Shown here in pieces: positions 2,701 through 47,776 of a stretch of 50,343 nucleotides of DNA. The stretch's first letter is position 1. Each line of letters begins with the position of its first letter. Origin of the DNA: Escherichia phage vB_Eco_mar001J1; sequence record NC_048204.1. One strand, given 5' to 3'. Position numbers and translations under genes: made by a program. The notes beneath the pieces are model-generated. The model was not told the DNA's origin and searched no databases. It saw nothing but the letters and a program-made list of their open reading frames with translations.

Positions 2701-3186
2701 TCATTTTATGTATTCTGATTCCCAAATCATCCTCTGATTTATAGCATCATCCATTGATTTGAATGATTTTGATATTCTATTTGAGTTTACGCATATTGAA
2801 GCTACCCATAGATCATCTCTTTTATTATACATAACGCCAGTTATTCCGCTTGTATTGCTTTTTCTAACTCTACCGCAACCTTTTCTAAGGTTGTCTGAAT
2901 GACGTATTATTCTAAGGTTGTCGATATTGTCATTAGCCTCCTCGCCATCACAAACTGGGTTTTTATGATCTATGACAAATCCTTCTGGAATCTTACCGTT
3001 GTGCATTTCCCAAACTATTGAATGTCTGTAGTGCAGTTTTCCATTAAATCCTATTAAAACATATCCATATTCATTTTTGCACCCTGCAAAGTCTCCAGGT
3101 TTGACTCCTCCATTTCTCCCATTTCTCCTTACTTTCCAGTAAAGTATTCCATTTCTATATTCAAAATAATCACTCCAATTTATCAT
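2701..3186 (-). CDS. HNH homing endonuclease with AP2-like DNA-binding domain
   Basis: IDHKNPVCDGEEANDNIDNLR HNH motif and C-terminal SGITGV...W AP2-like segment. Confidence 0.8.
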   Translation of the reverse strand: MINWSDYFEYRNGILYWKVRRNGRNGGVKPGDFAGCKNEYGYVLIGFNGKLHYRHSIVWEMHNGKIPEGFVIDHKNPVCDGEEANDNIDNLRIIRHSDNLRKGCGRVRKSNTSGITGVMYNKRDDLWVASICVNSNRISKSFKSMDDAINQRMIWESEYIK

Positions 3187-3425
3187 TTAAATCTTTTTCT
3201 TTGCTCTCTGCTGCTGTCGATTACAGATTTGAAATCAATTTTTGTTGGAACTGCTGGAACTCTTACCATTTTTCGCGGCCTTTCCTTGAGGAAAGTCATC
3301 TTGTCGCCGCTAATTATGCTCACATCTGCAATATCAAAGTATTGCGCGATCTTCTTTATATCGTCGGCAATACCGCATTCTTTAGCGTGATTCCATACCG
3401 CATCTCTTCCTTGCTCAACCTTCAT
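3183..3425 (-). CDS. Hypothetical protein (80 aa)
   Basis: GGAGG RBS before ATG at 3425; 4-nt overlap with downstream HNH gene. Confidence 0.5.
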   Translation of the reverse strand: MKVEQGRDAVWNHAKECGIADDIKKIAQYFDIADVSIISGDKMTFLKERPRKMVRVPAVPTKIDFKSVIDSSREQRKRFK

Positions 3426-3594
3426 GCTTATAATATGCCTCCGCTTGTTCAATTGGTGCGTGACCGTATGCAACTTTCAGTAAAAACATTGCGATCTCCC
3501 AATCAAACTGGAATCCTTCCTTTGAACCGCCATCCACTGAACCTTTTGCTACTTCTTGAGCAAGATTAAAAGCGCGTTTATCGAATACCACCAT
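3415..3594 (-). CDS. Hypothetical small protein (59 aa, below the ORF-track cutoff)
   Basis: Manual translation MVVFDKRAFNLAQEV...; GAGGA RBS 9 nt upstream; stop overlaps next gene start. Confidence 0.5.
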   Translation of the reverse strand: MVVFDKRAFNLAQEVAKGSVDGGSKEGFQFDWEIAMFLLKVAYGHAPIEQAEAYYKHEG

Positions 3595-3626
3595 TTTTAT
3601 TTCCTCATGTTTGCTTCGTTGAAATA

Positions 3627-3670
3627 ATTATGCCCGACACTAGGCCGGGCGTTTTAACAAAAAGTGCTAT
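3627..3670 (-). promoter_or_regulatory. Cassette promoter candidate: 20-mer ATAGCACTTTTTGTTAAAAC + 18 bp (GC hairpin) + CATAAT
   Basis: Motif overlaps stop of 3670..3927; 22 bp from TTGTTA to the hexamer; almost identical to inverted copy at 50143-50186. Confidence 0.55.
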
Positions 3671-3927
3671 TAGTGGATCATTCCGTGCTGAAAATTCCAC
3701 GAATCGACAAACTCTTGCATGTCATTTCTGATTTGTTCGTGCCATTTTTCAAGCGGGAGTTTTCTTGTCTCCTCAAAGCTCATATCTAATGCGCTTGAAA
3801 ATTCCCACGGATCGCAATCAATCATCTTTTTCACGTTAGGATTTTTATCAAGTGCATCGCACACCATAGAGCGAAATAACAACCATTCGCCAGTTTCATT
3901 TAAATAAACGCTTCTCTCTTTTTTCAT
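3670..3927 (-). CDS. Hypothetical protein (85 aa)
   Basis: Track ORF with ATG start; compact spacing to Dam gene. Confidence 0.55.
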   Translation of the reverse strand: MKKERSVYLNETGEWLLFRSMVCDALDKNPNVKKMIDCDPWEFSSALDMSFEETRKLPLEKWHEQIRNDMQEFVDSWNFQHGMIH

Positions 3928-3931
3928 CGTG

Positions 3932-4657
3932 TTAGCTCCGTTTGCGTGCGCGACGTTCGGTTACAGAAGGGCAAATATCGCTGATCTTAACGTATCGCGT
4001 TTTCTGCTCCTCGCCTTCTTTAAGTTTGCGCATGACAAAAATCACGCTTCCCTTGTTGTTGCCCTGCACAGGCTCACCAGTCAATCCAGACACAAAGGCA
4101 ATTCTTCCGGTGCGGGAGTATTCTACTCCACCCTCTTCGTAAACCTCACCAGTGATCCAGATGATTTCAGCCGCGTTTTTCTGCGCCTCATAAAACCATG
4201 CTGTAGAGTTGTCGGCTGGCAACAAAACATCAATTTGGTTGTTGTGCTCCATTTGCTCAATTGCTTTCTTGATAAATGGAGTTGGGTTGCTGTACGGCGG
4301 GTTAAGCCATACGTGCTTGTTGCTACCCCACCAACGCTTTAAGCAGTTTGTTTCCTTGCTATAGAACTTCTCGCAAACTGCGTTTTCCTGGCTTGCTGCC
4401 GCGTCTAGATCGTATTCACCAAATTCTGATTCCATCCACTCCACGATCTCTTGAGGCGTGCTCCACATATCTCGCACAACGTCCGGCGTAGTGCTTCCAG
4501 CGTATCGGTTTCCGCTTACCTTATAATATTGATTTGGCTTTACTGCCTGGTAATGGCCTCCAGTTGCAAGGGCATTCCCTATAAACGTTTCTCTCTCCAA
4601 CTGCTCAAAGCTAACGAATGCGTCATGGGTGTCTTTATCTAAAATATCTTTAGCCAT
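3932..4657 (-). CDS. dam: DNA N6-adenine methyltransferase (phage Dam-like)
   Basis: NPPY catalytic motif (WLNPPYSNP); start placed at MAKDIL after GGAGA RBS, alternative ATG at 4684. Confidence 0.8.
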   Translation of the reverse strand: MAKDILDKDTHDAFVSFEQLERETFIGNALATGGHYQAVKPNQYYKVSGNRYAGSTTPDVVRDMWSTPQEIVEWMESEFGEYDLDAAASQENAVCEKFYSKETNCLKRWWGSNKHVWLNPPYSNPTPFIKKAIEQMEHNNQIDVLLPADNSTAWFYEAQKNAAEIIWITGEVYEEGGVEYSRTGRIAFVSGLTGEPVQGNNKGSVIFVMRKLKEGEEQKTRYVKISDICPSVTERRARKRS

Positions 4658-4697
4658 TTTCATTTCTCCGCTATTAAAAGCCATCTCGTGTTATTGA

Positions 4698-4741
4698 ATT
4701 ATGGCGCAATCCATCGCGCCAGTTTTAACAAAAAGTGCTAT
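4698..4741 (-). promoter_or_regulatory. Cassette promoter candidate (20-mer, hairpin GGCGCGATGGATTGCGCC, CATAAT)
   Basis: Same geometry as other copies; overlaps stop of 4738..5157. Confidence 0.55.
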
Positions 4742-5157
4742 TTAAGCATGTATTCAATAGCCAACTTAAACTGATTGAATCCGTAGGCTACCGCAGCGAA
4801 TCCTCCTAAGCTGCGAACGCGACGCAAAAAAGCCTTTTGTTCATCGCTGACTGGTGATGCTTTCCCCTTGCCTGATTTATTCACTCGTTTGATCTCAATC
4901 GCTGCAAAGGGGTATTTTCCGTTTAAACCAATCAGGATGATGAAATCGCTTACTCCCTTAACCAAGCCGGACTGCTGATCAATCATCGCCGTTGCTTTAG
5001 ACTTCTCATTCTCGTTTACCGTATGCCACGCCAGCAAATAAGGATGAGCATAAGTCAACCACTGAAAACTATCTATCTGGTGATTAACTTCCCTTCTCGT
5101 GTCGGTTGGATCCCTTTCGTAAAACTCAAGATAATCGCCTTTATCAGTTATAGCCAT
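4738..5157 (-). CDS. VRR-NUC domain nuclease
   Basis: PD-(D/E)XK-like segment GVSDFIILIG...AAIEIK in a 139-aa protein. Confidence 0.6.
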   Translation of the reverse strand: MAITDKGDYLEFYERDPTDTRREVNHQIDSFQWLTYAHPYLLAWHTVNENEKSKATAMIDQQSGLVKGVSDFIILIGLNGKYPFAAIEIKRVNKSGKGKASPVSDEQKAFLRRVRSLGGFAAVAYGFNQFKLAIEYMLK

Positions 5158-15391: not shown

Positions 15392-15424
15392 AATTAAAGG
15401 GGGCTATGCCCCCCCTTTTTTTTA
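15392..15424. terminator. Bidirectional terminator between convergent genes
   Basis: GGGGGC tat GCCCCC followed by an 8-nt T-run. Confidence 0.8.
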
Positions 15425-18400
15425 CCAGCTTCCCGTAATCCTTCCGACTTCAACCCTCAATACTCCGTTTGCATCTTTTACCTTCAATCCTTCGTTGGTG
15501 AATTTAGTAGCTCCCTCTCCTGGAGTTGATCCGTAGTTTTCAAATATTCCGTTTTTATCAAGCCTCCAACCTTGCTGATTTTGAACAAAATTGTTTGACT
15601 GAATAACATTTCCAATCATGGCATTCGTTATGGACCCGTTTTTCACTAACAAGCTGTTAATGAAAACTTGGTTGTTTTCAACAACGAAAGGCAATGTAAA
15701 CGTACCGCCCGTAGAGCTAGTCATGATCGCGAACCTGTTAGCATCGAACAAGATTTGCGAGATCAGGCCTTGAGAAGATTGCGACAACTGCATGATCATG
15801 CCTGCGCTGTACTTCTGCCCCTTGTAAGTAAGGCCCAATTTCATAGCGTACTTAGCGCCAACCGAATCAACGTTGGCCCACGAATCAAGTTTTTGAGCTA
15901 ATGCAGATTCAACGTCTCCAAATTTGGCTGTTAAAGCCTGGTCAGCCTGAACCCTTGCCTCTGTCTCATTGGCGATCGCCTGTTTCACTTCTGAGATGTC
16001 AGCCTCGACTTCTGTTTTGATAACTCCGTCAAGGTCGTTTATCTCTTTCGTGAACTTAGCGTCAAGCTGCTGAACGGCCTGAGCGCGCGCTTCTGATTCA
16101 TTGGCAATGGTTTGCCTTACCTCGCCAATACTTGCAGCCGTATCTCGTTTTACGCCGTCTATTTCCTTCGTAAATTTAGAATCAAGCTGCTGAACTTGAG
16201 TAGCTCGCGTCTCTGATTCGTTGGCAATCGCTTCCTGAACGGTTTTGATACTTGAAACTATATCTTCATCAATTGACGCCCTTAACTCTTCGATTTGAGT
16301 TACGCGCGCCTCCGTTTCGGTAGCAATAAGCTCCAGTGCATGACCATATTCAGCCTTACGCTTTCCGTTTTGTACTCGCGTCCACTTCACATCAGCATCG
16401 TTTGCCAATGCGTTCTGGATGATTGATTGCGCCTGGTCTTTGATTTTGTTTGCACTGTCTATGGCGTTCTCTTTGATTTCTTGGCCCGCTTCGGTATCAA
16501 AAATCTTGTCCAGAATGTCGCCTAAAACAGATTCAACATCATCTGACGCCATGCCGCGAACAAAGTCAGTCCAGCCGGAAACGTTGCCGATCCTGTCAAC
16601 GCTACGGATTCTATACCATACAACTTGACCAGCTGGTAACGTGCTATGCCAATACTCATATTGAGGATATGGAATCAGCGTAAGCAGGCTTGAGTTTTCA
16701 ACCGTTCCGTCTGGAGATTGGTGAAGCTCAATGTAAGCCGTATCGCCTGATCCTTCCGGCATACCCCATTTGACACGAATGCCAAAAACTTCATTATCAG
16801 AAGCTGTAAGATTAATCGGCGCTCCTGGCTCGCCAACTTTACCTGTCAAGGTGGCGGTTGCAATCTTTGACCACGGGGAGGTGTTACCGCTTGCAGAAAC
16901 AGATCTAACCCTTACTTGATAGTTCCCTGAATAAATTCCTTCTACCTCTATCTCTTTGTTAGCTGTCTGCGGCGTATTCAGCCAGTTGCCATCACCTTTT
17001 CGCCACTGCATTTCATAAAGAGATGCGTAAGGAACCTTATCCCATGAAACAACCATAGTCTCAACGCTAACGCCCTGCACGACGCGAGAATAAGATGAGA
17101 TCTGCACGTTCTCAGGCGCTACCATCATGTCAGGCTGAACAATTGAAGTTGGTCTGTCATCAATGTTTACGCCATAATCAATCTCGTCGTATTTGTTCGG
17201 ATCGTACTCTACAGCCGTGATTGAATAGGTAAACTCGTTTTCGTCATCACCCTTGCTGATAGTTGTCACAACGTATTGCTGCAACGCAAGGTCAGTACGG
17301 TCAATCGCAAAAACAGTGTCAGGCTTAACATCAAAACCAAATCCAATATTTAACTCAATGGTTTTTCCGTCTGCGCTAACCTTTGAGATCGTGCGCTTAA
17401 CTGGCTTGCCGTCCGGCTTGTTGATGATAATAAAATCACCAGGACGAGCATCAACCTTAAACGGAACGAAAACCTGCAATCCTGAAACTTCCATCACTCG
17501 GCCCGATAGGTTTAACGTTAGGTTGCTGCTCTGAAAATTATCAGCGATAGCAATCACATCACCTATTGATGGAATCATCCCCTCTAGTCCGGTAGCAAAG
17601 TTTACAGTAGTGCTTCTAAGGTTTGTTTTCAAAACCCACCTACCGCGACGATTCGCTTCGCTCCTGCGTGTGCACCCGATCGCTGTAATGCTTGTTGGAT
17701 TGTATCCAAATCGTAATGCAGCCTCAGTATCAAAAACCCCCTCTACGTCCTGCTGATACATGTTTTGTTCGTCGTCAAACGTCACGTTACACTGCGTGTA
17801 CATGCTTTTTTCGCTTGCGGTTGTGTACTGAAAATCACCGTTGATGACGTTTTCATTAGTAAACACGTATGATGGATCGCGCGGCTTATCAATCACGATT
17901 GATAAACTCTCACCATTCCAAAAGCTCATTCCGCGAAAGATTGAGCAAATGTCACGGATTAGCTGATAAGCCTCAACCTGATTCTGGATCACCACATCGC
18001 ATAGGTAGCGAGGCTCTGTACCGCCCTTACCGTCTGGAACTTTCTGATCACAGTAAACGCCTGCTTCGTATAAGCTCCACTTGTCGATCTGTATTCCTAA
18101 CTCTCGCTGGTCAAGCCCATAACGCTGATTCGTCACCAGATCATAAAGAACCCATGCAGGATTATTTGACCACGCTTTTTTAAAAGTCCCATCCCATGAC
18201 CCGTGATATTCTCTTGATATTGGATCATAGTTGCTTGGCACATTAATAATCTTCCATTTCTTTTTTATAGAAATGTTAGGGATTTGTGTAGGAAACAATT
18301 CGCTGTCAAATTCTACAAATACAAGGCCAGTCAGAGGATAACGGAATTTTGCATCCACAACCTCAGCGTAACTTTGCAGTTTGATTTTATCAGTCACCTT

Positions 18401-19000
18401 TGAAGATGTGCTATCTGGAGTCAGTCGCTTGACTCTGATTAAAACGCGCTCCTCAAACTTAGGAAGATCAATCCTTCTGCTGCGGTCATATCCTGATCTC
18501 GTCTTGCCGTCAATTACATCTCTCATAACCTCGTTATAAGAACCGCCATCAACAGCCATATCTACGGCATATTGAACCCTTACGCCAACAAGATCGCCGT
18601 TATCCTCCTGCTTCATGCCAACTGGCATCAGAATCTTGATTCTGATTGCAGAAAGATTTTTGTTTGTCACAGATATAACATAAGGATTGTCTGCTGTAAT
18701 ATCTCGCGAAACTGTCACCTCGCTTGATGTGTCAGTAAACCCCTGGATGTAATCTTGCGTCTGCGTACCTGGTCGATATTCAGCCGTAACTCCCTCGTAG
18801 TTAACAGTGCCATCGCTGGCAATAACCGGAACATCATCAAGATAAAGATCGCGCAACGTGAAATTTGGATCGCACTCGCCATCAGATACAGCAAGCAAAA
18901 CTTTAATCTTATTTATCGAGATCAGGTTATCTTCCATCTCTTTTGGCACGTAGGGCTTTTGACCGCCCCCTTTACTGCCACTTATCATATATTTAGCCAT
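15422..19000 (-). CDS. J: Central tail fibre / host specificity protein J
   Basis: N-terminal and body similarity to lambda gpJ (SGSKGGG..., VPSNYDP...SWDGTFK), fibronectin-like region; start set at MAKY. Confidence 0.85.
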   Translation of the reverse strand: MAKYMISGSKGGGQKPYVPKEMEDNLISINKIKVLLAVSDGECDPNFTLRDLYLDDVPVIASDGTVNYEGVTAEYRPGTQTQDYIQGFTDTSSEVTVSRDITADNPYVISVTNKNLSAIRIKILMPVGMKQEDNGDLVGVRVQYAVDMAVDGGSYNEVMRDVIDGKTRSGYDRSRRIDLPKFEERVLIRVKRLTPDSTSSKVTDKIKLQSYAEVVDAKFRYPLTGLVFVEFDSELFPTQIPNISIKKKWKIINVPSNYDPISREYHGSWDGTFKKAWSNNPAWVLYDLVTNQRYGLDQRELGIQIDKWSLYEAGVYCDQKVPDGKGGTEPRYLCDVVIQNQVEAYQLIRDICSIFRGMSFWNGESLSIVIDKPRDPSYVFTNENVINGDFQYTTASEKSMYTQCNVTFDDEQNMYQQDVEGVFDTEAALRFGYNPTSITAIGCTRRSEANRRGRWVLKTNLRSTTVNFATGLEGMIPSIGDVIAIADNFQSSNLTLNLSGRVMEVSGLQVFVPFKVDARPGDFIIINKPDGKPVKRTISKVSADGKTIELNIGFGFDVKPDTVFAIDRTDLALQQYVVTTISKGDDENEFTYSITAVEYDPNKYDEIDYGVNIDDRPTSIVQPDMMVAPENVQISSYSRVVQGVSVETMVVSWDKVPYASLYEMQWRKGDGNWLNTPQTANKEIEVEGIYSGNYQVRVRSVSASGNTSPWSKIATATLTGKVGEPGAPINLTASDNEVFGIRVKWGMPEGSGDTAYIELHQSPDGTVENSSLLTLIPYPQYEYWHSTLPAGQVVWYRIRSVDRIGNVSGWTDFVRGMASDDVESVLGDILDKIFDTEAGQEIKENAIDSANKIKDQAQSIIQNALANDADVKWTRVQNGKRKAEYGHALELIATETEARVTQIEELRASIDEDIVSSIKTVQEAIANESETRATQVQQLDSKFTKEIDGVKRDTAASIGEVRQTIANESEARAQAVQQLDAKFTKEINDLDGVIKTEVEADISEVKQAIANETEARVQADQALTAKFGDVESALAQKLDSWANVDSVGAKYAMKLGLTYKGQKYSAGMIMQLSQSSQGLISQILFDANRFAIMTSSTGGTFTLPFVVENNQVFINSLLVKNGSITNAMIGNVIQSNNFVQNQQGWRLDKNGIFENYGSTPGEGATKFTNEGLKVKDANGVLRVEVGRITGSW

Positions 19001-19036: not shown

Positions 19037-19065
19037 ATTATAAAGGCACAAAAAAACCAGCGCAA
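19037..19065 (-). promoter_or_regulatory. Sigma70-type promoter candidate for J (TTGCGC, 17-bp spacer, TATAAT)
   Basis: Perfect TATAAT; -35 lies in the 3' arm of the upstream terminator hairpin. Confidence 0.4.
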
Positions 19066-19071
19066 TGCTGG
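19049..19071 (-). terminator. Rho-independent terminator between HNH gene and J
   Basis: CCAGC...GCTGG stem followed by a 7-nt T-run on minus strand. Confidence 0.65.
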
Positions 19072-19077
19072 TTAAAT

Positions 19078-19554
19078 CTACTTTCCGTGGTTTATGTGGA
19101 ATTTGTTTAAAACTTCAATCTCTATCCTCTTTTCTGCCGCATCCTGAAATGAATCAAAGTAAAATTCATGCCTAACACCATCAATCTTTGCTCTTGCAAT
19201 CCATTTTCCGCGACTAAAGTTTACCCCAGTAATTCCCGTCTTGCTGTTCCTGTAAAGCGACTTATTCTTGTTGTTAACACTCATTCTAACAAGTCTTAAG
19301 TTTGAAATATTGTCGTTCATTGTGTTGTGATCTATGTGATCAACTTGCATTCCATGCGGTATTTCTCCATTATGAATTTCCCAAACTATCCTGCTCCTGT
19401 AGTATCTTTCTACATCAATTGATATTCTAACCCTTTCTCCACTCTTCTTGCTTTTGCTTACGCTTCCTGCCTCACTTCCTTTCTTTATCCTTCTTCCTAC
19501 GTCTACAGCCCAAAATAACTTACCGTCATTATAATAAAAAATATCACGCCACAT
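19078..19554 (-). CDS. HNH-AP2 homing endonuclease inserted between tail genes I and J
   Basis: HNH motif MQVDHIDHNTMNDNISNLR; AP2-like TGITGV..W; start at MWRDIFYY with AAGGA RBS. Confidence 0.75.
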   Translation of the reverse strand: MWRDIFYYNDGKLFWAVDVGRRIKKGSEAGSVSKSKKSGERVRISIDVERYYRSRIVWEIHNGEIPHGMQVDHIDHNTMNDNISNLRLVRMSVNNKNKSLYRNSKTGITGVNFSRGKWIARAKIDGVRHEFYFDSFQDAAEKRIEIEVLNKFHINHGK

Positions 19555-19571
19555 GATCACATCCTTAATTA

Positions 19572-19615
19572 ATTGTAAAGCGAAAATCCGTTTTCGCTTT
19601 AACATATTGTGCTAT
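19572..19615 (-). promoter_or_regulatory. Cassette promoter variant (AAATAGCACAATATGTTAAAG, TACAAT)
   Basis: 22 bp between ATGTTA and TACAAT; overlaps stop of tail gene I. Confidence 0.45.
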
Positions 19616-20212
19616 TTATGCTTTGTCCTCTGCGTAGCTGCCAGCCGACCAGATCGCTCCGCCTACTGTCCTATATCCATATGGCAAAGGAACCGGATAA
19701 CCTGCCGCCGTGGTATTTACTGCGCCGCCGAAAGCGTAAGAAGGCTTGTTTTCTGCTGATTGGCTTTGTAGTTTCATTCCGCCATGCTGCGGCGAGATCA
19801 TTTGCATGACACCGCCAAGCGCGATAGCACCACCCATCATAAATGCGGAAGATGCAAAAGCGCCCATAGCCGCCAGGCTTGCACCGCCAGTAATGAACGC
19901 AGTAGCCATAATTACAGCACCAAAAACAACATTGAACAGGCCGCCGGACTTAGAACCAGTTGGAACAGGAACTATTCTAACCTCTCGCGCGCACTTCCAT
20001 GATTTTTCATCATGCTGACCAATGTTTTTACCGTCAACGAATATAGCATACTTCATGCGCGATCCTACTTCGCTTTGCATGTAGTCTTTGAACCCTTCAA
20101 CCTGGGAAGACAACGCGCGTATTGCTTCTGGGTATGAGTCAACCGCCATTTTGTGAAAGACGCCAAATCTACGCCCCAGGGAACCAGATAGCTTAATTAC
20201 TTTCAATGTCAT
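19616..20212 (-). CDS. Tail assembly protein I-like
   Basis: Gly/Ala-rich C-terminal hydrophobic region; lambda order K-I-J. Confidence 0.7.
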   Translation of the reverse strand: MTLKVIKLSGSLGRRFGVFHKMAVDSYPEAIRALSSQVEGFKDYMQSEVGSRMKYAIFVDGKNIGQHDEKSWKCAREVRIVPVPTGSKSGGLFNVVFGAVIMATAFITGGASLAAMGAFASSAFMMGGAIALGGVMQMISPQHGGMKLQSQSAENKPSYAFGGAVNTTAAGYPVPLPYGYRTVGGAIWSAGSYAEDKA

Positions 20213-25557: not shown

Positions 25558-26218
25558 AATTGATGTCGGAAGATAAGAACGTAAATCGACCTTTCAGAGA
25601 TACGGAAAGGGAAACAGTTTCCATTTCGTTCATAGTGGTTTGCGGAATGTCATTAAAAGACAATACGCCAGCCCAGCAACGCATCTCTTTAGCTTTCGGC
25701 ACGTACATACGCAAAGCGGTTACGTCGCCGGATTCCTCAGCCTCGCGCAAGATCGGATAAATCGGATTATCATATTCATGTGCGAAAGTATAGGTAAGAG
25801 AAACGGCGCTCTTGTAGGTCGGCAACTGCTGCTCCTGGTCATCAGCCAAACACTGATAAGTGTAATACTGTTGCTCGCCGCCGTCCTGCGCAAGATCCTG
25901 TACGCAAGGAATCTCTACCCATGATTTTACTTCTCGGAAGGTTGCTGTATTTTCGCCAACAGGAAACACGTTAGTATCAGTAGTATCAACCCCTTCAAGG
26001 GTAACATTTTCATTATCGGTAACAGCCTTAACGCGCAACACACGGCTAACCAACTTACCCCACGAAGACGTCTCAATCAGAACATAAGCGCCCTTCTTGA
26101 TATTTTTTGTGTCGCTCGCTGTAAATACAGGCTCCTTAGCGTTAGTGATAGCCGTAGCCTGAATCGGATCGCCCATATTAACGCCGATGAAAATTTGAGA
26201 ACCATTAGGCAAGTGCAT
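25556..26218 (-). CDS. Major tail (tube) protein
   Basis: Position immediately upstream of G/GT; 220 aa. Confidence 0.6.
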   Translation of the reverse strand: MHLPNGSQIFIGVNMGDPIQATAITNAKEPVFTASDTKNIKKGAYVLIETSSWGKLVSRVLRVKAVTDNENVTLEGVDTTDTNVFPVGENTATFREVKSWVEIPCVQDLAQDGGEQQYYTYQCLADDQEQQLPTYKSAVSLTYTFAHEYDNPIYPILREAEESGDVTALRMYVPKAKEMRCWAGVLSFNDIPQTTMNEMETVSLSVSLKGRFTFLSSDIN

Positions 26219-26220
26219 GA

Positions 26221-26622
26221 TTATTCCTCCTTTGTATCAAGCCTAACACTGAAACGGATCGGCAATAACCAACCTGTTTCACTTTTTAGTAACGTGTGGA
26301 CGTTTGCCCCCTCGCTAATATAGCCAGTTTCAAGCATTCTACCATCATAGAAAAATCTCGCAATCTCTTTAGCCAGCAAACGCGCTTTATCAGTGCCACC
26401 GCCAGGAGGAATGACAATTCCAACCTGAACCAAACCGATATAAGAAACACATTTTCTATCAAGAGATATGCGATCCGTGTCTGCTTCCATGTAGTTAAAT
26501 TTTAACCACATAGAACCATCTCCAGGCGGCACAAAATCAACGTTTTCATAGGCTATCTTAAATCGTGATTCATATTCAGCCGCCAGCGCCTTTCTTGCCG
26601 CCAACATTAAATCATAGTGCAT
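26221..26622 (-). CDS. Putative tail terminator/completion protein
   Basis: Synteny only. Confidence 0.4.
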   Translation of the reverse strand: MHYDLMLAARKALAAEYESRFKIAYENVDFVPPGDGSMWLKFNYMEADTDRISLDRKCVSYIGLVQVGIVIPPGGGTDKARLLAKEIARFFYDGRMLETGYISEGANVHTLLKSETGWLLPIRFSVRLDTKEE

Positions 26623-34047: not shown

Positions 34048-34069
34048 ACTTTTTAGCAATTAGTGCTAT
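34048..34069 (-). repeat. Degenerate cassette copy (TAAATAGCACTAATTGCTAAAAAG) with adjacent TATAAT
   Basis: Overlaps the large terminase stop codon; spacing unlike the canonical cassette. Confidence 0.35.
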
Positions 34070-35637
34070 TTATTGCGTAGACCAGCCAGCTTTTTCATCC
34101 TTGCCACCGGATCATCTGCCAAGTTCATTTCGACGTTAACAGCATCAACTATATTATCGACAATATCATCATGGGGATGAGAATCATCAAAAGTGAATGC
34201 TGCAACCTCTGCCAGTATCTCAGGCAGCATGGGGTGATTTTCTGGCAGCGCCACACGTCCGGCCCTCATTACTGGCGCGGCGTCCATTGCTCGCGTCACC
34301 TTGTCATTGCTTCGCTGAACGGGATTTATATCAATCGGGATCTTCTTTTTGGCCCCCTGAATCAAACCCGTGCCGCTGGCCTTATCCTCAATATGGATAC
34401 GTCGCAAGCTGCCACACTCCTTATTGCGCTTCCAGCACTGGTTAACGAAGGCAATAAAATTTAATTCAAGATCCGGCGCTTCCCACTTTCCGCGAATGCC
34501 ATCAATGAAGTAAACGCGATTCTTATACATACCCCAATAACAAAAAACTGAATAGTCATTAAGCTCTCCGGCCTTCTGCGCGGTATCTCCAGTGATAAAT
34601 GTGTATTCAAAGCGATCCGGTTTAGGAAGTGCGCATTTTTCGCCGCTGCCGTAATACTGGAACCACTCTGTTTTAAACACATTCCCGCCCAGCGCGATTG
34701 GTTGCTGTTGGTATTGGCTGGCGAACGTGTAAGGATCTGCATTGCGCAATGCAAGCAATTCCTCCGCGCTTTCCTTTGCAGGCCAAAATGAATAATGAGC
34801 AACGCCATCTATCATCACTGGCTTACTGGACAAAACATCGCGATCAAACTCTGGCTTTAACCAATCAGGAAGCGTTTCCCGATAATCCTCGGTAACGAGC
34901 GCCGGAATGCTCACGACCTTAAATTTGATGCCGCCCATACCGCCATTCGTCATAAACCAAGTCGAATCATTGACGTGTAGCCGCTGCTGAACCATTACAA
35001 TGGGCGTGGTGTCTTTCATTCGACGAGATCGCACGGTGTTTTTTAGGCGCATGTGTCCGGCTTCGCGCTTCGTCTTTGATAGCTGATCGTCTGGTTTGTC
35101 TGGATCGTCGAGAACCAGCATACCAGTGAAGCCATCATCCATGTAACCACCACGTAATCCCGTTACCTGTCCGCCAATGGATCGTGAATTGAGTTGCAGC
35201 CAGACTTTACCATCACGATTAAGCACAGCTATATCTTTTGCGCTGGCCTTTGCCATCTTGCAAGGCCATAGCTCTTGCCATTCCGGCGAACCGATAATCT
35301 CCCTTACTCGAATGCTGTTTTGCTGCACAAGTCCATCACTAAACGAAAGGTTTAAATTTCGCACCTTCTTGCTTTTCAGCATTGCGTAAACTGGCATGTG
35401 GATCGAGAATATTTCCGTTTTTGACGAACCAGGAGCAACGTTGAAAATCACGTTCTGCTCCTTGCCACTAATCACATCCTCAAGGCATCGGCAGATATAT
35501 GATAAATGCCAGTTACCTAAAAACTTTTGCCCCTGTAGCAAGCTAAACCAAATGCGGATCATCTTTTCGAATGAGTGGGCGCTCATTTCTTTAATGGCGC
35601 GTTTCTGCGCCGCTGTTAAGTCCTCCCAAATAATCAT
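34066..35637 (-). CDS. Terminase large subunit
   Basis: 523 aa with ATPase-like N-terminal region; position between small terminase and portal. Confidence 0.75.
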   Translation of the reverse strand: MIIWEDLTAAQKRAIKEMSAHSFEKMIRIWFSLLQGQKFLGNWHLSYICRCLEDVISGKEQNVIFNVAPGSSKTEIFSIHMPVYAMLKSKKVRNLNLSFSDGLVQQNSIRVREIIGSPEWQELWPCKMAKASAKDIAVLNRDGKVWLQLNSRSIGGQVTGLRGGYMDDGFTGMLVLDDPDKPDDQLSKTKREAGHMRLKNTVRSRRMKDTTPIVMVQQRLHVNDSTWFMTNGGMGGIKFKVVSIPALVTEDYRETLPDWLKPEFDRDVLSSKPVMIDGVAHYSFWPAKESAEELLALRNADPYTFASQYQQQPIALGGNVFKTEWFQYYGSGEKCALPKPDRFEYTFITGDTAQKAGELNDYSVFCYWGMYKNRVYFIDGIRGKWEAPDLELNFIAFVNQCWKRNKECGSLRRIHIEDKASGTGLIQGAKKKIPIDINPVQRSNDKVTRAMDAAPVMRAGRVALPENHPMLPEILAEVAAFTFDDSHPHDDIVDNIVDAVNVEMNLADDPVARMKKLAGLRNK

Positions 35638-36179
35638 TGTAATAACCTCTCTATTTCATCTTTTGAAAAACTACGATCTACACAATGGGTATGCAGCTTA
35701 ACTTTTGCTTTTGCGTATGCTGCGCGGCATTCCTCCTTCGTGTCGAAAAATCCAAGAAAGAAAACCATCCCGTTAACCTTGATTCGCGAATGCCATTTAC
35801 CCACTCTCTTCTCAAAGTATCCGCCAGTTATTTCGCTATATTCCCTGTTTTGCTGATTCTCAGATCCTGAAACATCGCTTAAGTTATCGGCCTTATTGTT
35901 TAGCTTATTGCCATCATTGTGATCTACAAATTCAGGCCAATAGCCATACACCAAAAACCAAACAACACTATGCGCCATAAATCGCCTACCGCCTTTTAAC
36001 TGGCCTCGGAAGTATCCATCTTTTGTTATTTCAACAAAAGCCTCTTTTCCGTTCTTTTTGGCGTGATACATGTTCTTAAATCTAAGGCATGTTGACGATG
36101 ACTCATCGTAATAAACATGCTTTAAAATCAGTTCTTCTTCCTCTTTCGTGACTGGTTTTGCTTTTCCGTTTACATGCAT
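35634..36179 (-). CDS. HNH-AP2 homing endonuclease inserted between the terminase subunit genes
   Basis: VDHNDGNKLNNKADNL HNH motif; C-terminal AP2-like segment; start at MHVNGK. Confidence 0.75.
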   Translation of the reverse strand: MHVNGKAKPVTKEEEELILKHVYYDESSSTCLRFKNMYHAKKNGKEAFVEITKDGYFRGQLKGGRRFMAHSVVWFLVYGYWPEFVDHNDGNKLNNKADNLSDVSGSENQQNREYSEITGGYFEKRVGKWHSRIKVNGMVFFLGFFDTKEECRAAYAKAKVKLHTHCVDRSFSKDEIERLLQ

Positions 36180-36220
36180 AATAAAAACCCCCAACATTAC
36201 GCCAGGGGTAAATTTTAGAG

Positions 36221-36754
36221 TTATTGGTTTAGCATGTCCAGAACATCATGCACAGCCTCTTTCACCTCATCGGCAGTTACTGCGTCAATGCTTGCATTAG
36301 CTGCCGCGCTCGCTTCAACGCTCACTGTTGCTGGCTTCTCTACTCCGATCTCTTTACCGATAAATCCAGCATTAATCATGTTATTTGCCGCAAGCTGGAA
36401 TTTTTGCTCGTAAATTACTTTATCAACAAACTCCATCACATCGCAGAATCCAGGCTCTTTACGCCATTTGCTTACAGCAGCCTCAGTCACGCCGAGATAC
36501 AAGCTGAATCCGTTAACCGTGAAAACGCGAGGCTTGTAAACTCTGCTCTCGTACACGTCACCCTGAAAGGAAGCAGTTTCAGCCGCCTGGATGTGATTCT
36601 CTTCGGCCCAAGTGAAATAGCGGATCGCCATATCAAAAACCTGTTCCGGCGTGTACTTGTGGCGGTTGTTTAGCGTAACAATATCGCCATAGGTTTTATT
36701 ATATAACTCTTTGAAATTTAATGCCTTTACAGCAGGCTCAACGTTTTTAGCCAT
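36221..36754 (-). CDS. Terminase small subunit (putative)
   Basis: Position upstream of large terminase; strong AGGAGG RBS at MAKNVEP. Confidence 0.5.
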   Translation of the reverse strand: MAKNVEPAVKALNFKELYNKTYGDIVTLNNRHKYTPEQVFDMAIRYFTWAEENHIQAAETASFQGDVYESRVYKPRVFTVNGFSLYLGVTEAAVSKWRKEPGFCDVMEFVDKVIYEQKFQLAANNMINAGFIGKEIGVEKPATVSVEASAAANASIDAVTADEVKEAVHDVLDMLNQ

Positions 36755-38595: not shown

Positions 38596-38804
38596 TCTTC
38601 CACTACCTCGCATTCGTCATGGTTAACACTAATATTGTCGCCAGCCTTGATAAACTCGCTGTTACGCTGCGCAATAACACAATAAGATCCGTCGCTGAAA
38701 TGTCCGTCAACTTCCAGCACATCACCAACAACCAAACCGCATTGCTCAAGAGTTATTGATCCGTCGCCGTTGATAGTGTCGATTTTGGTGATTTTGATTT
38801 TCAT
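38592..38804 (-). CDS. Hypothetical acidic protein (70 aa)
   Basis: First gene after cassette promoter 38837-38880. Confidence 0.55.
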   Translation of the reverse strand: MKIKITKIDTINGDGSITLEQCGLVVGDVLEVDGHFSDGSYCVIAQRNSEFIKAGDNISVNHDECEVVEE

Positions 38805-38836
38805 TGCGCTTTCCTCTGTTTCGCTTCAATAAGGGC

Positions 38837-38880
38837 ACTTTATCAAATGCCCTTGCGGAAGTTTTAACAAAAAGTGCTAT
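38837..38880 (-). promoter_or_regulatory. Cassette promoter candidate (20-mer, hairpin, TAAAGT)
   Basis: Overlaps stop of 38880..39170; 22-bp spacing. Confidence 0.5.
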
Positions 38881-39170
38881 TAGCTCAGATAGTAAAGCTC
38901 ATCGCGCGCGAAGTCATCAAAATCTCGCTGTGTCAACGGTCGATCCTCTCGCGCAGCCTCCTCTATCATGTTGATCAAAAAGTCGTTCATCGCTCCTAGT
39001 CCACCATCCGGCATATAGAAAGCTGCGAAAGCCCGCGCCCATGAACGAGCATTTTTGAATCCGACGCGCTTCATTGTGACTGGCGAGTGTTTAGAGTCGT
39101 TCCACTTGTTAGACTGCGCGATGTTTTCAAAAGCGTTAACCAGTAGTTTGCGGTAAGTTTTGTTTGCCAT
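38880..39170 (-). CDS. Hypothetical protein (96 aa)
   Basis: AAGGGGA RBS. Confidence 0.55.
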   Translation of the reverse strand: MANKTYRKLLVNAFENIAQSNKWNDSKHSPVTMKRVGFKNARSWARAFAAFYMPDGGLGAMNDFLINMIEEAAREDRPLTQRDFDDFARDELYYLS

Positions 39171-41633: not shown

Positions 41634-41677
41634 ACTATACCGCAAGCCCGTTGAGACGTTTTAACAAAAAGTGCTAT
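41634..41677 (-). promoter_or_regulatory. Cassette promoter candidate (20-mer, hairpin GGGCTTGCGGTATAGTAAGCCC, TATAGT)
   Basis: 22-bp spacing; overlaps stop of 41678..41863. Confidence 0.5.
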
Positions 41678-41863
41678 TTAGAATTTTACCTCTTCCACAA
41701 GCTCAACCATCTTGTAACCAAGACGATAAGAGTCACCGAACAACAAGATCCCCATAAATTCATCGTGGCTTATTGACTCTTTGCCAACCGTTCTAAGCTC
41801 TCCGTTGTGAATCACAGTATCGCCGATCTTGATTTCTGATTTATGGACTAATTTCGTTTTCAT
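41678..41863 (-). CDS. Hypothetical protein (61 aa)
   Basis: AGGTGA RBS. Confidence 0.5.
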   Translation of the reverse strand: MKTKLVHKSEIKIGDTVIHNGELRTVGKESISHDEFMGILLFGDSYRLGYKMVELVEEVKF

Positions 41864-41878: not shown

Positions 41879-42064
41879 TTAAAAGAAAGCTACATAGTTT
41901 GCAATGCCTTTGGCGTCGTCGTTTGGCATTGCTTTTACAGCCAAGTCATAACCCGCCTCTACCTTCTGCTTTGCTGTTTCTTCGTTGTAGCCCCAGATAA
42001 CCAGGATTTTAACTACGTTTTCTTTGTTCAGGACTTTAAGGTCTTTGGTGATGCGACGTGCCAT
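41879..42064 (-). CDS. Hypothetical protein (61 aa)
   Basis: First gene after cassette promoter 42097-42140; GAGGAAA RBS. Confidence 0.55.
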   Translation of the reverse strand: MARRITKDLKVLNKENVVKILVIWGYNEETAKQKVEAGYDLAVKAMPNDDAKGIANYVAFF

Positions 42065-42096
42065 TTTTGTTTCCTCAATCTCGTTTCGATGAGGCT

Positions 42097-42140
42097 ATTA
42101 TGCCAGGCTTTGCGCCTGGCGTTTTAACAAAAAGTGCTAT
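42097..42140 (-). promoter_or_regulatory. Cassette promoter candidate (20-mer, hairpin CCAGGCGCAAAGCCTGG, CATAAT, TCGAAACGA leader)
   Basis: Consensus copy; overlaps stop of lipoprotein gene. Confidence 0.55.
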
Positions 42141-42397
42141 TTAATATCTGTTGTGACTTGCTGGTGCATTACGTTCTTTCCGCTGTTGTACGTGCTATCC
42201 GTTGCGCCTTTGCAATTGGTGTAATAGATCGCGCGACCGTTATCATAGAATCTGTATGCTGTGCATCCGTCAACAGTGAACAGGCGACCGACTTTGAAAT
42301 CTGACTCCACGCCTACGACAACCGTTGATTCTGATGCCTTTTCGCATCCGGTCAGGAGTGTCATTGCCGCCAAAACGCCTATTAATGCCTTTTTCAT
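42137..42397 (-). CDS. Small lipoprotein (second Cor/Llp-like candidate)
   Basis: Signal peptide with lipobox LLTGC; strong GAGGAGG RBS. Confidence 0.55.
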   Translation of the reverse strand: MKKALIGVLAAMTLLTGCEKASESTVVVGVESDFKVGRLFTVDGCTAYRFYDNGRAIYYTNCKGATDSTYNSGKNVMHQQVTTDIK

Positions 42398-43448: not shown

Positions 43449-43475
43449 GATCACAATCCTGGCGCTAACCGTCAA

Positions 43476-43519
43476 ATAGCACTTTTTGTTAAAACTCAGG
43501 CCGTCTGATCGGGTACATT
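43476..43519 (+). promoter_or_regulatory. Cassette promoter candidate for the rightward early operon (20-mer, TACATT, TCGAAACGAA leader)
   Basis: 22 bp between TTGTTA and TACATT. Confidence 0.55.
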
Positions 43520-43553
43520 ACACACATCGAAACGAACCGCTCAGGAGATAGCA

Positions 43554-44515: not shown

Positions 44516-44779
44516 ATGAAAATTAATGCACCTATTCCAGTTAAGCGCAAAGCACGTTTGCTCAACAACGGATGTTACGCCCTGCGGCCTGCATTTAAGG
44601 ATCGCACATTTCCGGTTATCGTTAACGTGTCTCACGTAAGCCGTAGCGGAAATCTGGTATTCGTTAAAGGTGAAGATCTGGCGGAGCTTGTATTCTATGG
44701 CGGTGCTAACGGCGAACCGCTCGGATTCTGGCTTGTAGATCCGTTAACTGGAGAGCGTGAAATCGAATTTCTGGACTAA
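44516..44779 (+). CDS. Hypothetical protein (87 aa)
   Basis: AAGGAG RBS. Confidence 0.55.
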   Translation: MKINAPIPVKRKARLLNNGCYALRPAFKDRTFPVIVNVSHVSRSGNLVFVKGEDLAELVFYGGANGEPLGFWLVDPLTGEREIEFLD

Positions 44780-44823
44780 ATAGCACTTTTTGTTAAAAAC
44801 GATGCGCTGCTGATTGTTATAGT
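44780..44823 (+). promoter_or_regulatory. Cassette promoter candidate (20-mer + TGtTATAGT)
   Basis: 22-bp spacing; the TATAGT has an upstream TG (extended -10). Confidence 0.5.
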
Positions 44824-44854
44824 TATCGCATCTACAACAAACGAGTATTTAAAA

Positions 44855-45052
44855 ATGGAAAATCAGGTTGATGTTAAAGTTGTTAAGCGCGACAAGTCTC
44901 ACGAAAAAGGTTTGTTTAAGAAAGGTGCTGAAATCACAATTGACCTTGATGATATGGAGGCGTACCACTCAGGGCTAACTTGGAACGTGCGCAAATGTGA
45001 AAACGGACTGTTCAAGTTAAATGGCTTTGAAACATACATGGAGATCATTTAA
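44855..45052 (+). CDS. Hypothetical protein (65 aa)
   Basis: Track ORF, ATG start. Confidence 0.5.
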   Translation: MENQVDVKVVKRDKSHEKGLFKKGAEITIDLDDMEAYHSGLTWNVRKCENGLFKLNGFETYMEII

Positions 45053-45545: not shown

Positions 45546-45653
45546 GGCTTTTTATATTCAAAAATGCCTGGATGGTGGCGGTTGCAAATGACCATTACGG
45601 CGGCGACGGAAAAAGAGCGCCACGACACTCTTACTTTAACTGAGGAATATAGA

Positions 45654-45890
45654 ATGACTGCAAAATCAATCAAAGTTGAAAATATTATGGCGGCTGTTAC
45701 GGCACATCACCGCGTTATTGTTCGACTTGATAAATCTAGCGGAATCAACCAGTTAACCATCACAGAATGTAAGGGCGGTTACACTGTCGGTATTCATCCT
45801 GGCGGTAAGTTGCGTAAATTCAGCGAGGCTGGATTAAAAGAAATGCTGAATGAATACTCATTCTATATTCAAAATTGGAAGGCTGCATAA
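45654..45890 (+). CDS. Hypothetical protein (78 aa)
   Basis: Start at MTAKSIKV with GAGGA RBS. Confidence 0.45.
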   Translation: MTAKSIKVENIMAAVTAHHRVIVRLDKSSGINQLTITECKGGYTVGIHPGGKLRKFSEAGLKEMLNEYSFYIQNWKAA

Positions 45891-45936
45891 TAAATTGATG
45901 GGCGCTAATGCGCGCCCTTAAATATAGGAATGAACG

Positions 45937-46047
45937 ATGAATAAAATTACTTATATTACTCTTTCTGTTGTTGTTTTTATGCTTGGAGTCACTATTGCGG
46001 CGTCATGTGTGGCATTAATTTATATTATGTTTAAGGTGATGATCTGA
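45937..46047 (+). CDS. Small membrane peptide (36 aa, below the ORF-track cutoff)
   Basis: Manual translation MNKITYITLSVVVFMLGVTIAASCVALIYIMFKVMI; AGGAATGA RBS. Confidence 0.4.
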   Translation: MNKITYITLSVVVFMLGVTIAASCVALIYIMFKVMI

Positions 46048-46271
46048 TGAGTCAAGACGGTTTTTTTGAGCGCCTTCAAATGGCAGAAGATTCCGGACTA
46101 AATAAAGAGGCGGCGCTTGAAGTTGCATATAAAATTAAGACTCTTGATGAGGCTTTAGGTGATATGGATATGGATCTTGAATCAAGCGCAATATTTGCAG
46201 ATCCCACTATGATTGTTAATGATTGTGGATGCGATTTCGATCCTGGTTGTCCGCGCTGTTTTCCGTTTTGA
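46047..46271 (+). CDS. Acidic protein with C-terminal Cys cluster (CGCDFDPGCPRC)
   Basis: Track ORF; directly upstream of the methyltransferase-like gene. Confidence 0.5.
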   Translation: MSQDGFFERLQMAEDSGLNKEAALEVAYKIKTLDEALGDMDMDLESSAIFADPTMIVNDCGCDFDPGCPRCFPF

Positions 46272-46281
46272 GGTAATGACG

Positions 46282-46992
46282 ATGTATAAAGGTTTAATAT
46301 TCTCACTATTTGATGGATCTGGTAAGGCCGTTAAAGACTGGGCTGATAATGGCTATAAGTGCATTTGCTTTAATGCTGACGGTGGCGATCACGGTGATTA
46401 CCAGTCAGTGCGCATACAGCATGAGAATATCGAATACGTTAACGTCTGGATTGATGATGCTTTTTATGTTAAGGCAATCAATAATGAGTGGGGCAATCCT
46501 GATTTTATTATGGCCTTCCCACCATGCACCGACCTTGCAAATAGCGGATCTCGCCATTGGGCCAAAAAACGCCTTGAGAATCCATCGTTCCAGGATGAGG
46601 CCGCCGACACTTGCAGAATAGCGGCTGATATAGGTGATTATTTCGGTGTTCCTTACATGATCGAAAATCCGGTTGGCAAGTTGTCAACGTTATGGCGTAA
46701 GCCTAATTATACGTTCCATCCGTGCGATTACGCTGGCTATCTGCCGGAAGATGATAAACACCCCGACTTCCCTGATATTATTCCGGCGCGGGATCGCTAC
46801 TTTAAGAAAACGTGTCTCTGGACTGGCAACGGCTTTGTTATTCCTCCACGCGCTTTAATCCTGCCGAAAGAGGAAGACAAAGATAATCCAGGCTGGGCCA
46901 AAACTGGCGGCAAGTCATCGCGCACAAAGATGATCCGCTCCCTCACTCCGCGCGGCTTTGCTCGCGCCGTCTTTGAGTCAAACTCAAAATAG
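46282..46992 (+). CDS. DNA cytosine-C5 methyltransferase-like protein, unusually short with PCT in place of PCQ
   Basis: Motif I LFDGSG, motif IV AFPPCTDLA, motif VI ENPVGK; only 236 aa, no obvious target-recognition domain. Confidence 0.55.
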   Translation: MYKGLIFSLFDGSGKAVKDWADNGYKCICFNADGGDHGDYQSVRIQHENIEYVNVWIDDAFYVKAINNEWGNPDFIMAFPPCTDLANSGSRHWAKKRLENPSFQDEAADTCRIAADIGDYFGVPYMIENPVGKLSTLWRKPNYTFHPCDYAGYLPEDDKHPDFPDIIPARDRYFKKTCLWTGNGFVIPPRALILPKEEDKDNPGWAKTGGKSSRTKMIRSLTPRGFARAVFESNSK

Positions 46993-47032
46993 CACTTTTT
47001 GTTAAAAGCCAGGTGTAAAAACCTGGCATAAT
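46989..47032 (+). promoter_or_regulatory. Cassette promoter candidate (20-mer, hairpin CCAGGTGTAAAAACCTGG, CATAAT, CCGAAACGAAAGGAG leader)
   Basis: 22-bp spacing; overlaps TAG stop of the methyltransferase-like gene. Confidence 0.55.
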
Positions 47033-47063
47033 CACTTCACCGAAACGAAAGGAGAAATAAACG

Positions 47064-47291
47064 ATGACAAAGAAGAGAACAATAAAATGCACAAAAGTTT
47101 ACCACCACATGAACAGCGTAAAGCCAGGTCAGCATTTTAAGGAAGGGAAACGCTATGAGATAATTATGGGAAGGGTTTTAGGCGCTGTAGCTGGTTACGT
47201 TGTTGATGCTCAAGGTGAGCAATGGACTCTTGAAAGACGCGAGGTGGGATTTAAATGTGCAATAGCGGAATTTCAAGGCAAGTACTTCTAA
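47064..47291 (+). CDS. Hypothetical protein (75 aa)
   Basis: AAGGAGA RBS. Confidence 0.55.
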   Translation: MTKKRTIKCTKVYHHMNSVKPGQHFKEGKRYEIIMGRVLGAVAGYVVDAQGEQWTLERREVGFKCAIAEFQGKYF

Positions 47292-47776
47292 ATTTATTTA
47301 TATATGAAAATGGTCGTCTATTATGGAAAAGCCCATCAGGAAGACGGGCAAAAATTGGCGATGAGGCAGGTTATATAACTAAAAACGGATATAGACGTAT
47401 AGGTATTGGTGGCAGAGAGTATCCGGCGCATTGGATTGTTTGGTGGATGCATGGAAAAACAATACCAAAAGGAATGGAGATAGATCACGTGAATCACATA
47501 AGAGATGACAATAGAATCGAAAACCTCCGGCTTGTCACAAGAAAACAAAACTCACAAAACCACACAAGGAGATCGACAAATAAATCTGGTTATACTGGCG
47601 TGATGTGGAATAAGAGGGTGTCTAAATGGTGCGTACAAGTAACTGTTGATGGCAGGTGTATTTCTGGTGGTTATCATGCATCAATTGATAGCGCTGTATC
47701 ATCAAGAGATGCTATTTGGAAAAAGTACGGATTCCACGAAAACCACGGAAGCGAGAAGCCTTATGATCAAGACTGA
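47255..47776 (+). CDS. HNH-AP2 homing endonuclease
   Basis: MEIDHVNHIRDDNRIENLR HNH motif; SGYTGV...W AP2-like segment. Confidence 0.75.
   Translation: MCNSGISRQVLLNLFIYENGRLLWKSPSGRRAKIGDEAGYITKNGYRRIGIGGREYPAHWIVWWMHGKTIPKGMEIDHVNHIRDDNRIENLRLVTRKQNSQNHTRRSTNKSGYTGVMWNKRVSKWCVQVTVDGRCISGGYHASIDSAVSSRDAIWKKYGFHENHGSEKPYDQD

Follow-up and report, generated by a model that had tools for sequence, protein, structure and literature searches.

Four probable free-standing HNH-AP2 homing endonuclease genes, each tied to one site, in the genome of the T1-like coliphage vB_Eco_mar001J1

Introduction

Free-standing homing endonuclease genes (HEGs), such as the seg and mob genes of T4 and the HEGs of the T-odd phage T5, are selfish intergenic genes lying beside essential genes, which spread in mixed infections with co-conversion of neighbouring sequence and marker exclusion; homing by HNH-AP2 enzymes is less well tested than that by the T4 enzymes. 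Here we analyse four genes of the HNH-AP2 type in Escherichia phage vB_Eco_mar001J1 (mar001J1), at 2701-3186, 19078-19554, 35634-36179 and 47255-47776 of a stretch of 50,343 nucleotides that we call the window, for which a model that read the letters alone had proposed mobile homing endonucleases (the original prediction). We put the probability at roughly 0.85 that they are four free-standing HNH(HNN)-AP2 homing endonuclease genes, belonging to separate lineages and each tied to one site.

HNN-AP2 HEGs are known as multiple free-standing copies, subject to gain and decay, in T1, Rtp, T5 and Xanthomonas phages (PMC2248197), and HNH(HNN)-AP2 HEGs have been reported from phages, cyanobacteria and protists (Magnani et al. 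2004, as cited in PMC2248197). Barth et al. (2023, PMC10448857) described HNH-AP2 ('IPA-HNH') HEGs at the borders of exchanged segments, close to genes for terminase, tail and replication functions, and the BASEL study (PMC8594841) treats HEG infestation and gene conversion as routine in phage genomes and avoids HEG-infested regions. Neither of the two HEG studies (PMC2248197, PMC10448857) analysed Warwickvirus or these four genes, and HNH or homing endonucleases go unmentioned in the publications on mar001J1 and the Danish warwickviruses.

The four genes share with the known HNN-AP2 HEGs their two-domain architecture, multiple free-standing copies, terminase, tail and replication neighbours, location at exchange boundaries and decayed copies, while differing from the 'IPA-HNH' proteins of ICP1, which are too divergent for Pfam HNH_3, in matching that family strongly. 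The N-terminal beta-hairpin region and the beta-beta-alpha-metal core with D-H...N...N are as in I-HmuI of SPO1 (1U3E), which in contrast is encoded in a group I intron and carries a C-terminal helix-turn-helix in place of the AP2-type C-terminus of the free-standing genes; I-HmuI is a nicking enzyme, whereas the window's HEGs may either nick or make double-strand cuts. The T4 systems stand further off, as seg enzymes are GIY-YIG and mob enzymes belong to other HNH subtypes without AP2, and homing has been shown experimentally in T4 whereas here it is deduced. The four HEGs are an ordinary, well-documented instance of a known mobile phage gene and no new kind of element.

Results

Four intact genes at gene boundaries

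The first 25 kb of the window match mar001J1 (LR027388.1 / NC_048206.1, 50,343 bp; Drexlerviridae, Tempevirinae, Warwickvirus; a T1-like coliphage) at 100% identity, and the window is a rotation of NC_048206.1 (window position = record position - 28975 for record positions of at least 28976, and record position + 21241 for earlier ones). The four ORFs first read as HNH-AP2 genes are confirmed at the predicted coordinates:

2701-3186, minus strand: HEG1 (gp59), 161 aa, HNH_3 and AP2-like
19078-19554, minus strand: HEG2 (gp76), 158 aa, HNH_3 and AP2-like
35634-36179, minus strand: HEG3 (gp17), 181 aa, HNH_3 and AP2-like
47255-47776, plus strand: HEG4 (gp50, 'endY'), 173 aa, HNH_3 and AP2-like

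All four coincide exactly with CDSs that RefSeq NC_048206.1 names 'HNH endonuclease', gp17 already being labelled 'putative homing endonuclease' in GenBank LR027388, so that the genes are real and previously annotated. Each is oriented like its flanking genes, all translate cleanly at full length, and their GC content (34-40%, with HEG1 at 34.4%) lies below the 44.4% of the genome. They are separate ORFs at gene ends and not introns or inteins, the flanking genes being complete and collinear with those of HEG-less relatives. HEG1 lies upstream of a DNA-repair exonuclease gene and HEG4 upstream of a DUF3987 helicase gene; HEG2 lies between tail genes I (19616-20212) and J (15422-19000), and HEG3 between the small (TerS, 36221-36754) and large (TerL, 34066-35637) terminase genes, both as originally predicted. 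The accompanying description of these places as module boundaries has to be given up, as all four are gene boundaries inside functional modules.

The proteins are only 30-38% identical to one another and DNA matches between copies do not exceed 27 nt, which rules out recent duplication within the genome; a hidden Markov model (HMM) of the four, run against the six-frame translation of the window, found exactly these four and no fifth copy or fragment, the next match being at E=0.9. Closer relatives lie outside. In Tlsvirus LL5 a 71% orthologue of HEG1 occupies the equivalent site, directly upstream of the DNA-repair exonuclease gene. Orthologues of HEG3, always in the order TerS/HEG/TerL, are 98% and 78% identical in metagenome contigs and 56% identical in Tunavirus S2_02, of a different subfamily. 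A 76% orthologue of HEG4 in 53-kb metagenome contigs has the same 37-nt overlap with the upstream ORF and is likewise followed by a small ORF and the DUF3987 helicase gene. For HEG2, the next relative in the phage collection lies at a different locus, with 47% identity. Same-site recurrence in other genera, subfamilies or metagenomic phages is therefore seen for three of the four lineages (HEG1, HEG3 and HEG4), and since outside relatives (71% for HEG1, 78-98% for HEG3, 76% for HEG4) are closer than the copies are to each other, the four were acquired separately; the earlier term 'paralogous' is better replaced by distant members of one family.

A nuclease domain of the I-HmuI type

Pfam HNH_3 (PF13392) matches all four proteins at 42.4-64.4 bits against a cut-off of 24.8 (E 5.5e-11 to 7e-18; HEG1 2.4e-11, HEG4 7e-18), as does PHROG 99 'HNH endonuclease' (E 1e-42 to 1e-62). 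The catalytic D, H, N and N residues of I-HmuI are retained in four out of four and, as D77/H78/N90/N99 in HEG4 numbering, are invariant in a 76-sequence alignment of the family built from collected homologues. The exact motif of the HNH core named in the original prediction is the H-N-N variant (D-H...N...N) and not H-N-H; HEG1 has a 9-residue insertion within it. In the N-terminal and HNH parts, a profile of the four HEGs matches I-HmuI (1U3E) with E=3e-10; the 76-sequence profile gives E=1.6e-10, and Foldseek places 1U3E first in the PDB for the HEG4 model (probability 1.00, 30% identity over 89 aligned columns). The Y..NG.L.W motif said to be common to the N-termini is found in three of the proteins in the four-protein alignment, the fourth, at 35634, reading YYDESSSTCLRF. 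These matches place the four HEGs among the HNH_3 / I-HmuI-like His-Me finger endonucleases, with metal-dependent DNA nicking or cleavage as their predicted activity.

An AP2-type C-terminal domain

Direct assignment of the C-terminus by Pfam AP2 (PF00847) failed on three of the four proteins, the only match being HEG1 at 20.2 bits (cut-off 33.3; E=8e-4), and profile and structural evidence was used instead. Of the 76 family members, 39 match Pfam AP2 at E<0.01; a profile of the four HEGs alone matched a Plasmodium AP2 domain weakly, and positions 100-155 of the 76-sequence profile (the C-terminal 55) matched Arabidopsis WRI1 (7WQ5) at E=4.6e-6 and TEM1 (7ET4) at E=3e-3. The AlphaFold2 model of HEG4 (mean pLDDT 87) has a C-terminus of three strands (116-119, 124-131 and 134-141) followed by a helix (144-158), at a pLDDT of about 89-96, with the three-stranded antiparallel sheet packed on the one helix. 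After I-HmuI, its Foldseek hits are AP2 domains, namely TEM1 (7ET5), PF14_0633 (3IGM), WRI1 (7WQ5) and AtERF1 (1GCC), the last superposing with an rmsd of 1.3 A over 50 aligned columns. It is on this family-level profile and structural evidence that the proposed AP2-like C-terminus, and with it the description 'HNH-AP2', holds.

Presence and absence among relatives

Each gene was searched, with about 1 kb of flank per side, against 50,697 phage records. HEG3 is present in no other record of this collection, and every other listed warwickvirus record with matches to both flanks has a locus 593 bp shorter. HEG1 occurs elsewhere only in EC167 (99.4% aa identity), the other listed records being 482 bp shorter. 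HEG2 is intact in seven other warwickviruses (atuna, Kalemo, brachmannus, JLBYU01, JLBYU10, orkinos and Phunderstruck) and partial in tonn and ityhuna, while the remaining listed records lack it and have a locus shorter by 537 bp. HEG4 was confirmed in JK16 and EC167, and from an identical match pattern we infer that BEK12A and BEK26 carry it too; other relatives have a different, 391-bp segment in its place. NorthRox, which is 97.9% identical over 94% of window 1-25000, has no member of the HEG family in the 50 of its 51.1 kb that were examined, and the HEG-less sites are identical across many lineages. Synteny with relatives thus supports insertion by mobile homing endonucleases: presence/absence polymorphism exists at all four sites and one copy is degraded, so that the uniform occupancy which would speak against the original prediction is not what these relatives have. 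The inserted or replaced segments are as follows:

2707-3227, minus strand: HEG1 cassette, 521 bp in place of 39 bp in NorthRox (BLAST breakpoints and junction alignment)
19073-19609, minus strand: HEG2 cassette, 537 bp, 6 nt past the stop of gene I and before the I/J hairpin (multiple alignment of mar001J1, atuna, tonn, EcoS-95 and BEK12A)
34790-35638, minus strand: co-conversion tract, the 5' ~850 bp of TerL, foreign to the Warwickvirus backbone (identity in 250-bp bins)
35639-36236, minus strand: HEG3 cassette, 598 bp replacing 8 bp (BLAST breakpoints against tiwna and A121)
47056-47763, plus strand: HEG4 cassette, 708 bp, made up of gp49 (47064-47291) and HEG4 (breakpoints against tonijn and protein comparison)

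The degraded copy is that of tonn, in which both ends of HEG2 are kept and 323 bp have been lost internally (window 19138-19460), the remnant still matching the family HMM at E=5e-7. In ityhuna the HEG2 match comes in two pieces at 89% coverage, as in tonn, and this phage probably carries a remnant of the same type.

Among the alternatives to homing, the one that survives best is that the intact ORFs are no longer nucleases at all, having been domesticated as AP2-type DNA-binding regulators or persisting as hitch-hiking, decaying relics. AP2 domains bind DNA alone and HEG DNA-binding domains have been co-opted as regulators (PMC10448857), the nuclease activity of the four is predicted, and the insertion in the HNH motif of HEG1 would fit such a loss. 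We nevertheless consider it improbable, because the D-H...N...N residues are kept in all four full-length ORFs, a truly decayed copy such as that of tonn is recognisable as such, and the HEG2 protein is 99.4% identical across its seven carriers where the DNA of the locus is about 97% identical, which points to recent spread.

Transfer of HEG3 together with terminase sequence

The strongest sign of movement is found at the terminase genes. In tiwna TerS and TerL overlap directly, and the 8 bp replaced by the HEG3 cassette are the overlap of the TerS stop and TerL start of HEG-less relatives; the cassette includes the last 16 nt of TerS, while at its other end the HEG3 stop overlaps the TerL start (ATGA) and the last HEG3 codons supply GAGAGG as the Shine-Dalgarno sequence of TerL. 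On the TerS side, identity to tiwna is 97-100% right up to the junction. On the TerL side, identity in 250-bp bins falls to 64-85% with tiwna and 74-86% with NorthRox and returns to 97-100% further along. The same tract is 92-100% identical to A121-type Tempevirinae (87% in the bin next to HEG3), whereas outside it identity to these phages is about 75%.

Two metagenome contigs, L014 and L015, carry a 98%-identical HEG3 protein between TerS and TerL. At the DNA level their HEG3 is 95-100% identical to that of mar001J1 where TerS is only 67-79% and the backbone about 70% identical, and in L014 the identity of TerL falls from 97% to about 70% with distance from HEG3. A near-identical gene in a backbone of about 70% identity, together with this decay along TerL, shows directly that HEG3 moved between diverged backbones and dragged TerL sequence with it, and the locus bears the textbook signature of homing with co-conversion. 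Outside mar001J1, HEG3 and the TerL patch occur together only in metagenome contigs; among deposited phages, A121-type and BEK7-type genomes were considered as donors and rejected, sharing the patch at 91-95% and lacking the gene.

The gradient at HEG3 also bears on a second alternative, that the HEGs are ancestral and that their patchiness reflects repeated precise deletions in relatives and not homing insertions. Deletion does occur, as the internal loss in tonn HEG2 shows, and the flanks of HEG1 and HEG2 contain no imported tract. This history is very unlikely, however: it does not account for a HEG3 that is far more similar between genomes than the adjoining TerS, nor for a TerL identity that declines away from it; GC content is below that of the genome at all four HEGs; none of the four is present in NorthRox, the nearest of the genomes examined, yet single copies occur in more distant ones; and the empty sites are identical across many lineages, with HEG-less junctions intact and compact, as in the TerS/TerL overlap of tiwna.

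That HEG3 might instead be no selfish gene and serve as an accessory HNH nuclease aiding terminase in packaging, like HK97 gp74, which also adjoins terminase genes, is hardly credible even though it sits inside the packaging operon in translational coupling with TerL and HNH proteins beside terminases are packaging factors in some phages (PMC10448857), since gp74-type genes are conserved in the packaging module and lack AP2 whereas HEG3 is sporadic (not a conserved packaging component among the listed warwickvirus records with both flanks, isolated phage genomes in all others of which, as in the direct overlap of tiwna, TerS abuts TerL), has the same HNH_3 and AP2 architecture as three copies at unrelated loci, and moves between backbones about 70% identical.

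One further feature lies inside the HEG3 cassette:

36187-36209, minus strand: terminator-like hairpin of ten pairs, its T-run abutting the HEG3 start codon (pattern scan)

To judge from its position, this hairpin may attenuate or mask expression of HEG3. Additional HNH-AP2 genes were seen on the other side of TerL, immediately downstream of it, in A121 (L003, 2991-3407), where the portal gene follows, and in contig L014 (3870-4376), which ends before any portal gene; TerL can accordingly have HEG sites at both of its ends in the Tempevirinae.

Shorter or undetectable patches at the other three sites

No tract comparable to that of HEG3 was found in the flanks of HEG1, HEG2 or HEG4, which match HEG-less relatives like the rest of the genome. 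The expectation that the HEGs mark mosaic junctions is therefore borne out strongly at HEG3 and by short patches at HEG1 and HEG4, with nothing detectable at HEG2. As a general marker of HEGs, dips in identity to NorthRox were rejected, the one adjacent to HEG3 being the only dip to coincide with a HEG; those unrelated to HEGs lie in the C-terminal part of J, in block 25751-26250 and in the early-gene region.

HEG1 stands between the small ORF gp60 and the exonuclease gene, its start overlapping the stop of gp60 (ATGA). The cassette rewrites the last 14 codons of gp60, the replaced patch measuring 41 bp, and the flanks are 99-100% identical to NorthRox right to the junctions.

HEG2 has its own Shine-Dalgarno sequence (AAGGATG), and comparison of flank identity with HEG-less relatives revealed no replaced tract. 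Between HEG2 and J lies the I/J hairpin, which the empty-site allele keeps, with compensatory changes in the stem:

19055-19073, minus strand: terminator-like hairpin and T-run between HEG2 and J (pattern match only)

At the same site, BEK12A (L007, 3473-3686) and BEK26 have about 107 bp of extra, unrelated sequence relative to the empty allele, with no HNH-AP2 homology.

HEG4 follows a small ORF after dcm (gp49) and precedes a small ORF (gp51) that leads to the DUF3987 helicase gene, overlapping gp49 by 37 nt and gp51 by 14 nt. In tonijn and NorthRox the place of the cassette is taken by 391 bp encoding a 128-aa ORF, of whose C-terminal half gp49 is a shortened allele (51% identical); the replaced patch beside HEG4 consists of about 200 bp of divergent upstream ORF.

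Neighbouring elements and observations on the records

The left edge of the HEG4 cassette abuts a promoter-like element at 46988-47049 that is repeated in about nine copies and consists of AATAGCACTTTTTGTTAAAA followed by a GC-rich hairpin and ATCGAAACGAA:

43475-43536, plus strand: repeated element
44779-44840, plus strand: repeated element
46988-47049, plus strand: repeated element, abutting the HEG4 cassette
50142-50203, plus strand: repeated element
3591-3671, minus strand: repeated element
4698-4742, minus strand: repeated element
38801-38881, minus strand: repeated element
41634-41678, minus strand: repeated element
42061-42141, minus strand: repeated element

Because the copies are oriented with the genes downstream of them, the element is likely to be a phage promoter or operator unit; one copy heads the gp61-gp60-HEG1 operon. 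EC167 has an additional HNH-AP2 gene (L011, 2781-3308) directly upstream of dcm (3298-3984), and the first ~630 bp of its dcm do not align with the window; this 5' part looks like another HEG-linked replacement patch.

The most divergent block relative to NorthRox is the C-terminal part of J at window 15500-16500 (72-87% identity, partly unalignable), and this block contains a 93-nt imperfect direct repeat at 16021-16233, with a spacing of 120 nt. The divergence of this part of J probably reflects host-range variation and is unrelated to the HEGs.

Positions 1-127 and 50217-50343 of the window are exact duplicates, as are the same positions of NC_048206.1, and the corresponding place in EC167 holds one copy. 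A length of 127 is a common maximum k-mer size, and the duplicate looks like an untrimmed overlap of a circular assembly, in which case the unique genome length is 50,216 bp. About 20 UNVERIFIED 'Campylobacter phage' records (GenBank MG0656xx, e.g. L003 = MG065670.1) are T1-like Tempevirinae 75-95% identical to mar001J1, and their attribution to a Campylobacter host looks doubtful.

Discussion

The domain architecture, the intact catalytic residues, the site-specific and sporadic distribution, the decayed copy and the transfer gradient at HEG3 are all as expected of homing endonuclease genes that entered this genome separately and are each tied to one site. The following sequence of events, in line with what is established for free-standing HEGs, is the most likely mechanism. 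During co-infection, the HEG enzyme would cut or nick the allele of a HEG-less relative near the empty site, and the break would be repaired by recombination with the HEG-carrying genome as template. The phage has genes for an Erf-like annealing protein and exonuclease VIII, which could serve this repair. Repair would copy the HEG together with a variable length of flanking DNA, and the resident allele would be protected from the enzyme by differing in sequence at the insertion or close to it. The cassettes seem adapted to do their host phage little harm, in that three of them overlap the start or stop codons of neighbouring genes and HEG3 supplies the ribosome-binding site of TerL.

Several observations weigh against this account. 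A long co-conversion tract accompanies HEG3 only, and A121-type phages have the 'foreign' TerL allele without HEG3. Around HEG1 and HEG2, similarity to HEG-less relatives is no lower than elsewhere in the genome, so transfer at these two sites could have been ordinary recombination, and HEG2 has no orthologue at the I/J site outside the genus in the phage collection. None of the four proteins reaches the Pfam AP2 cut-off, the predicted structure is that of HEG4 alone among the four, and nuclease activity, target sites and expression control of the HEGs are properties that we infer.

Any phylogeny or taxonomy of Drexlerviridae that is based on terminase or whole-genome identity is distorted by the four HEGs, most of all by the 850-bp foreign patch in TerL; distortion of this kind is why the BASEL authors already keep away from HEG-infested regions (PMC8594841). 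At the same time, the matched HEG-carrying, HEG-less and decayed alleles are natural substrates for tests of HNH-AP2 homing, in phages that grow on E. coli K-12.

A bolder possibility, which we put forward tentatively and regard as clearly less likely than its opposite, is that all four enzymes are active and that mar001J1 is a natural 'super-donor', overwriting four loci of HEG-less warwickviruses in mixed infection. The near-isogenic pair of mar001J1, with four HEGs, and NorthRox, in which none was found, would make this directly testable. If it were true, the overwritten loci would include the 5' third of the large terminase gene, and HEG load would measurably help to determine how well T1-like coliphages that circulate together compete and how fast their terminase alleles turn over.

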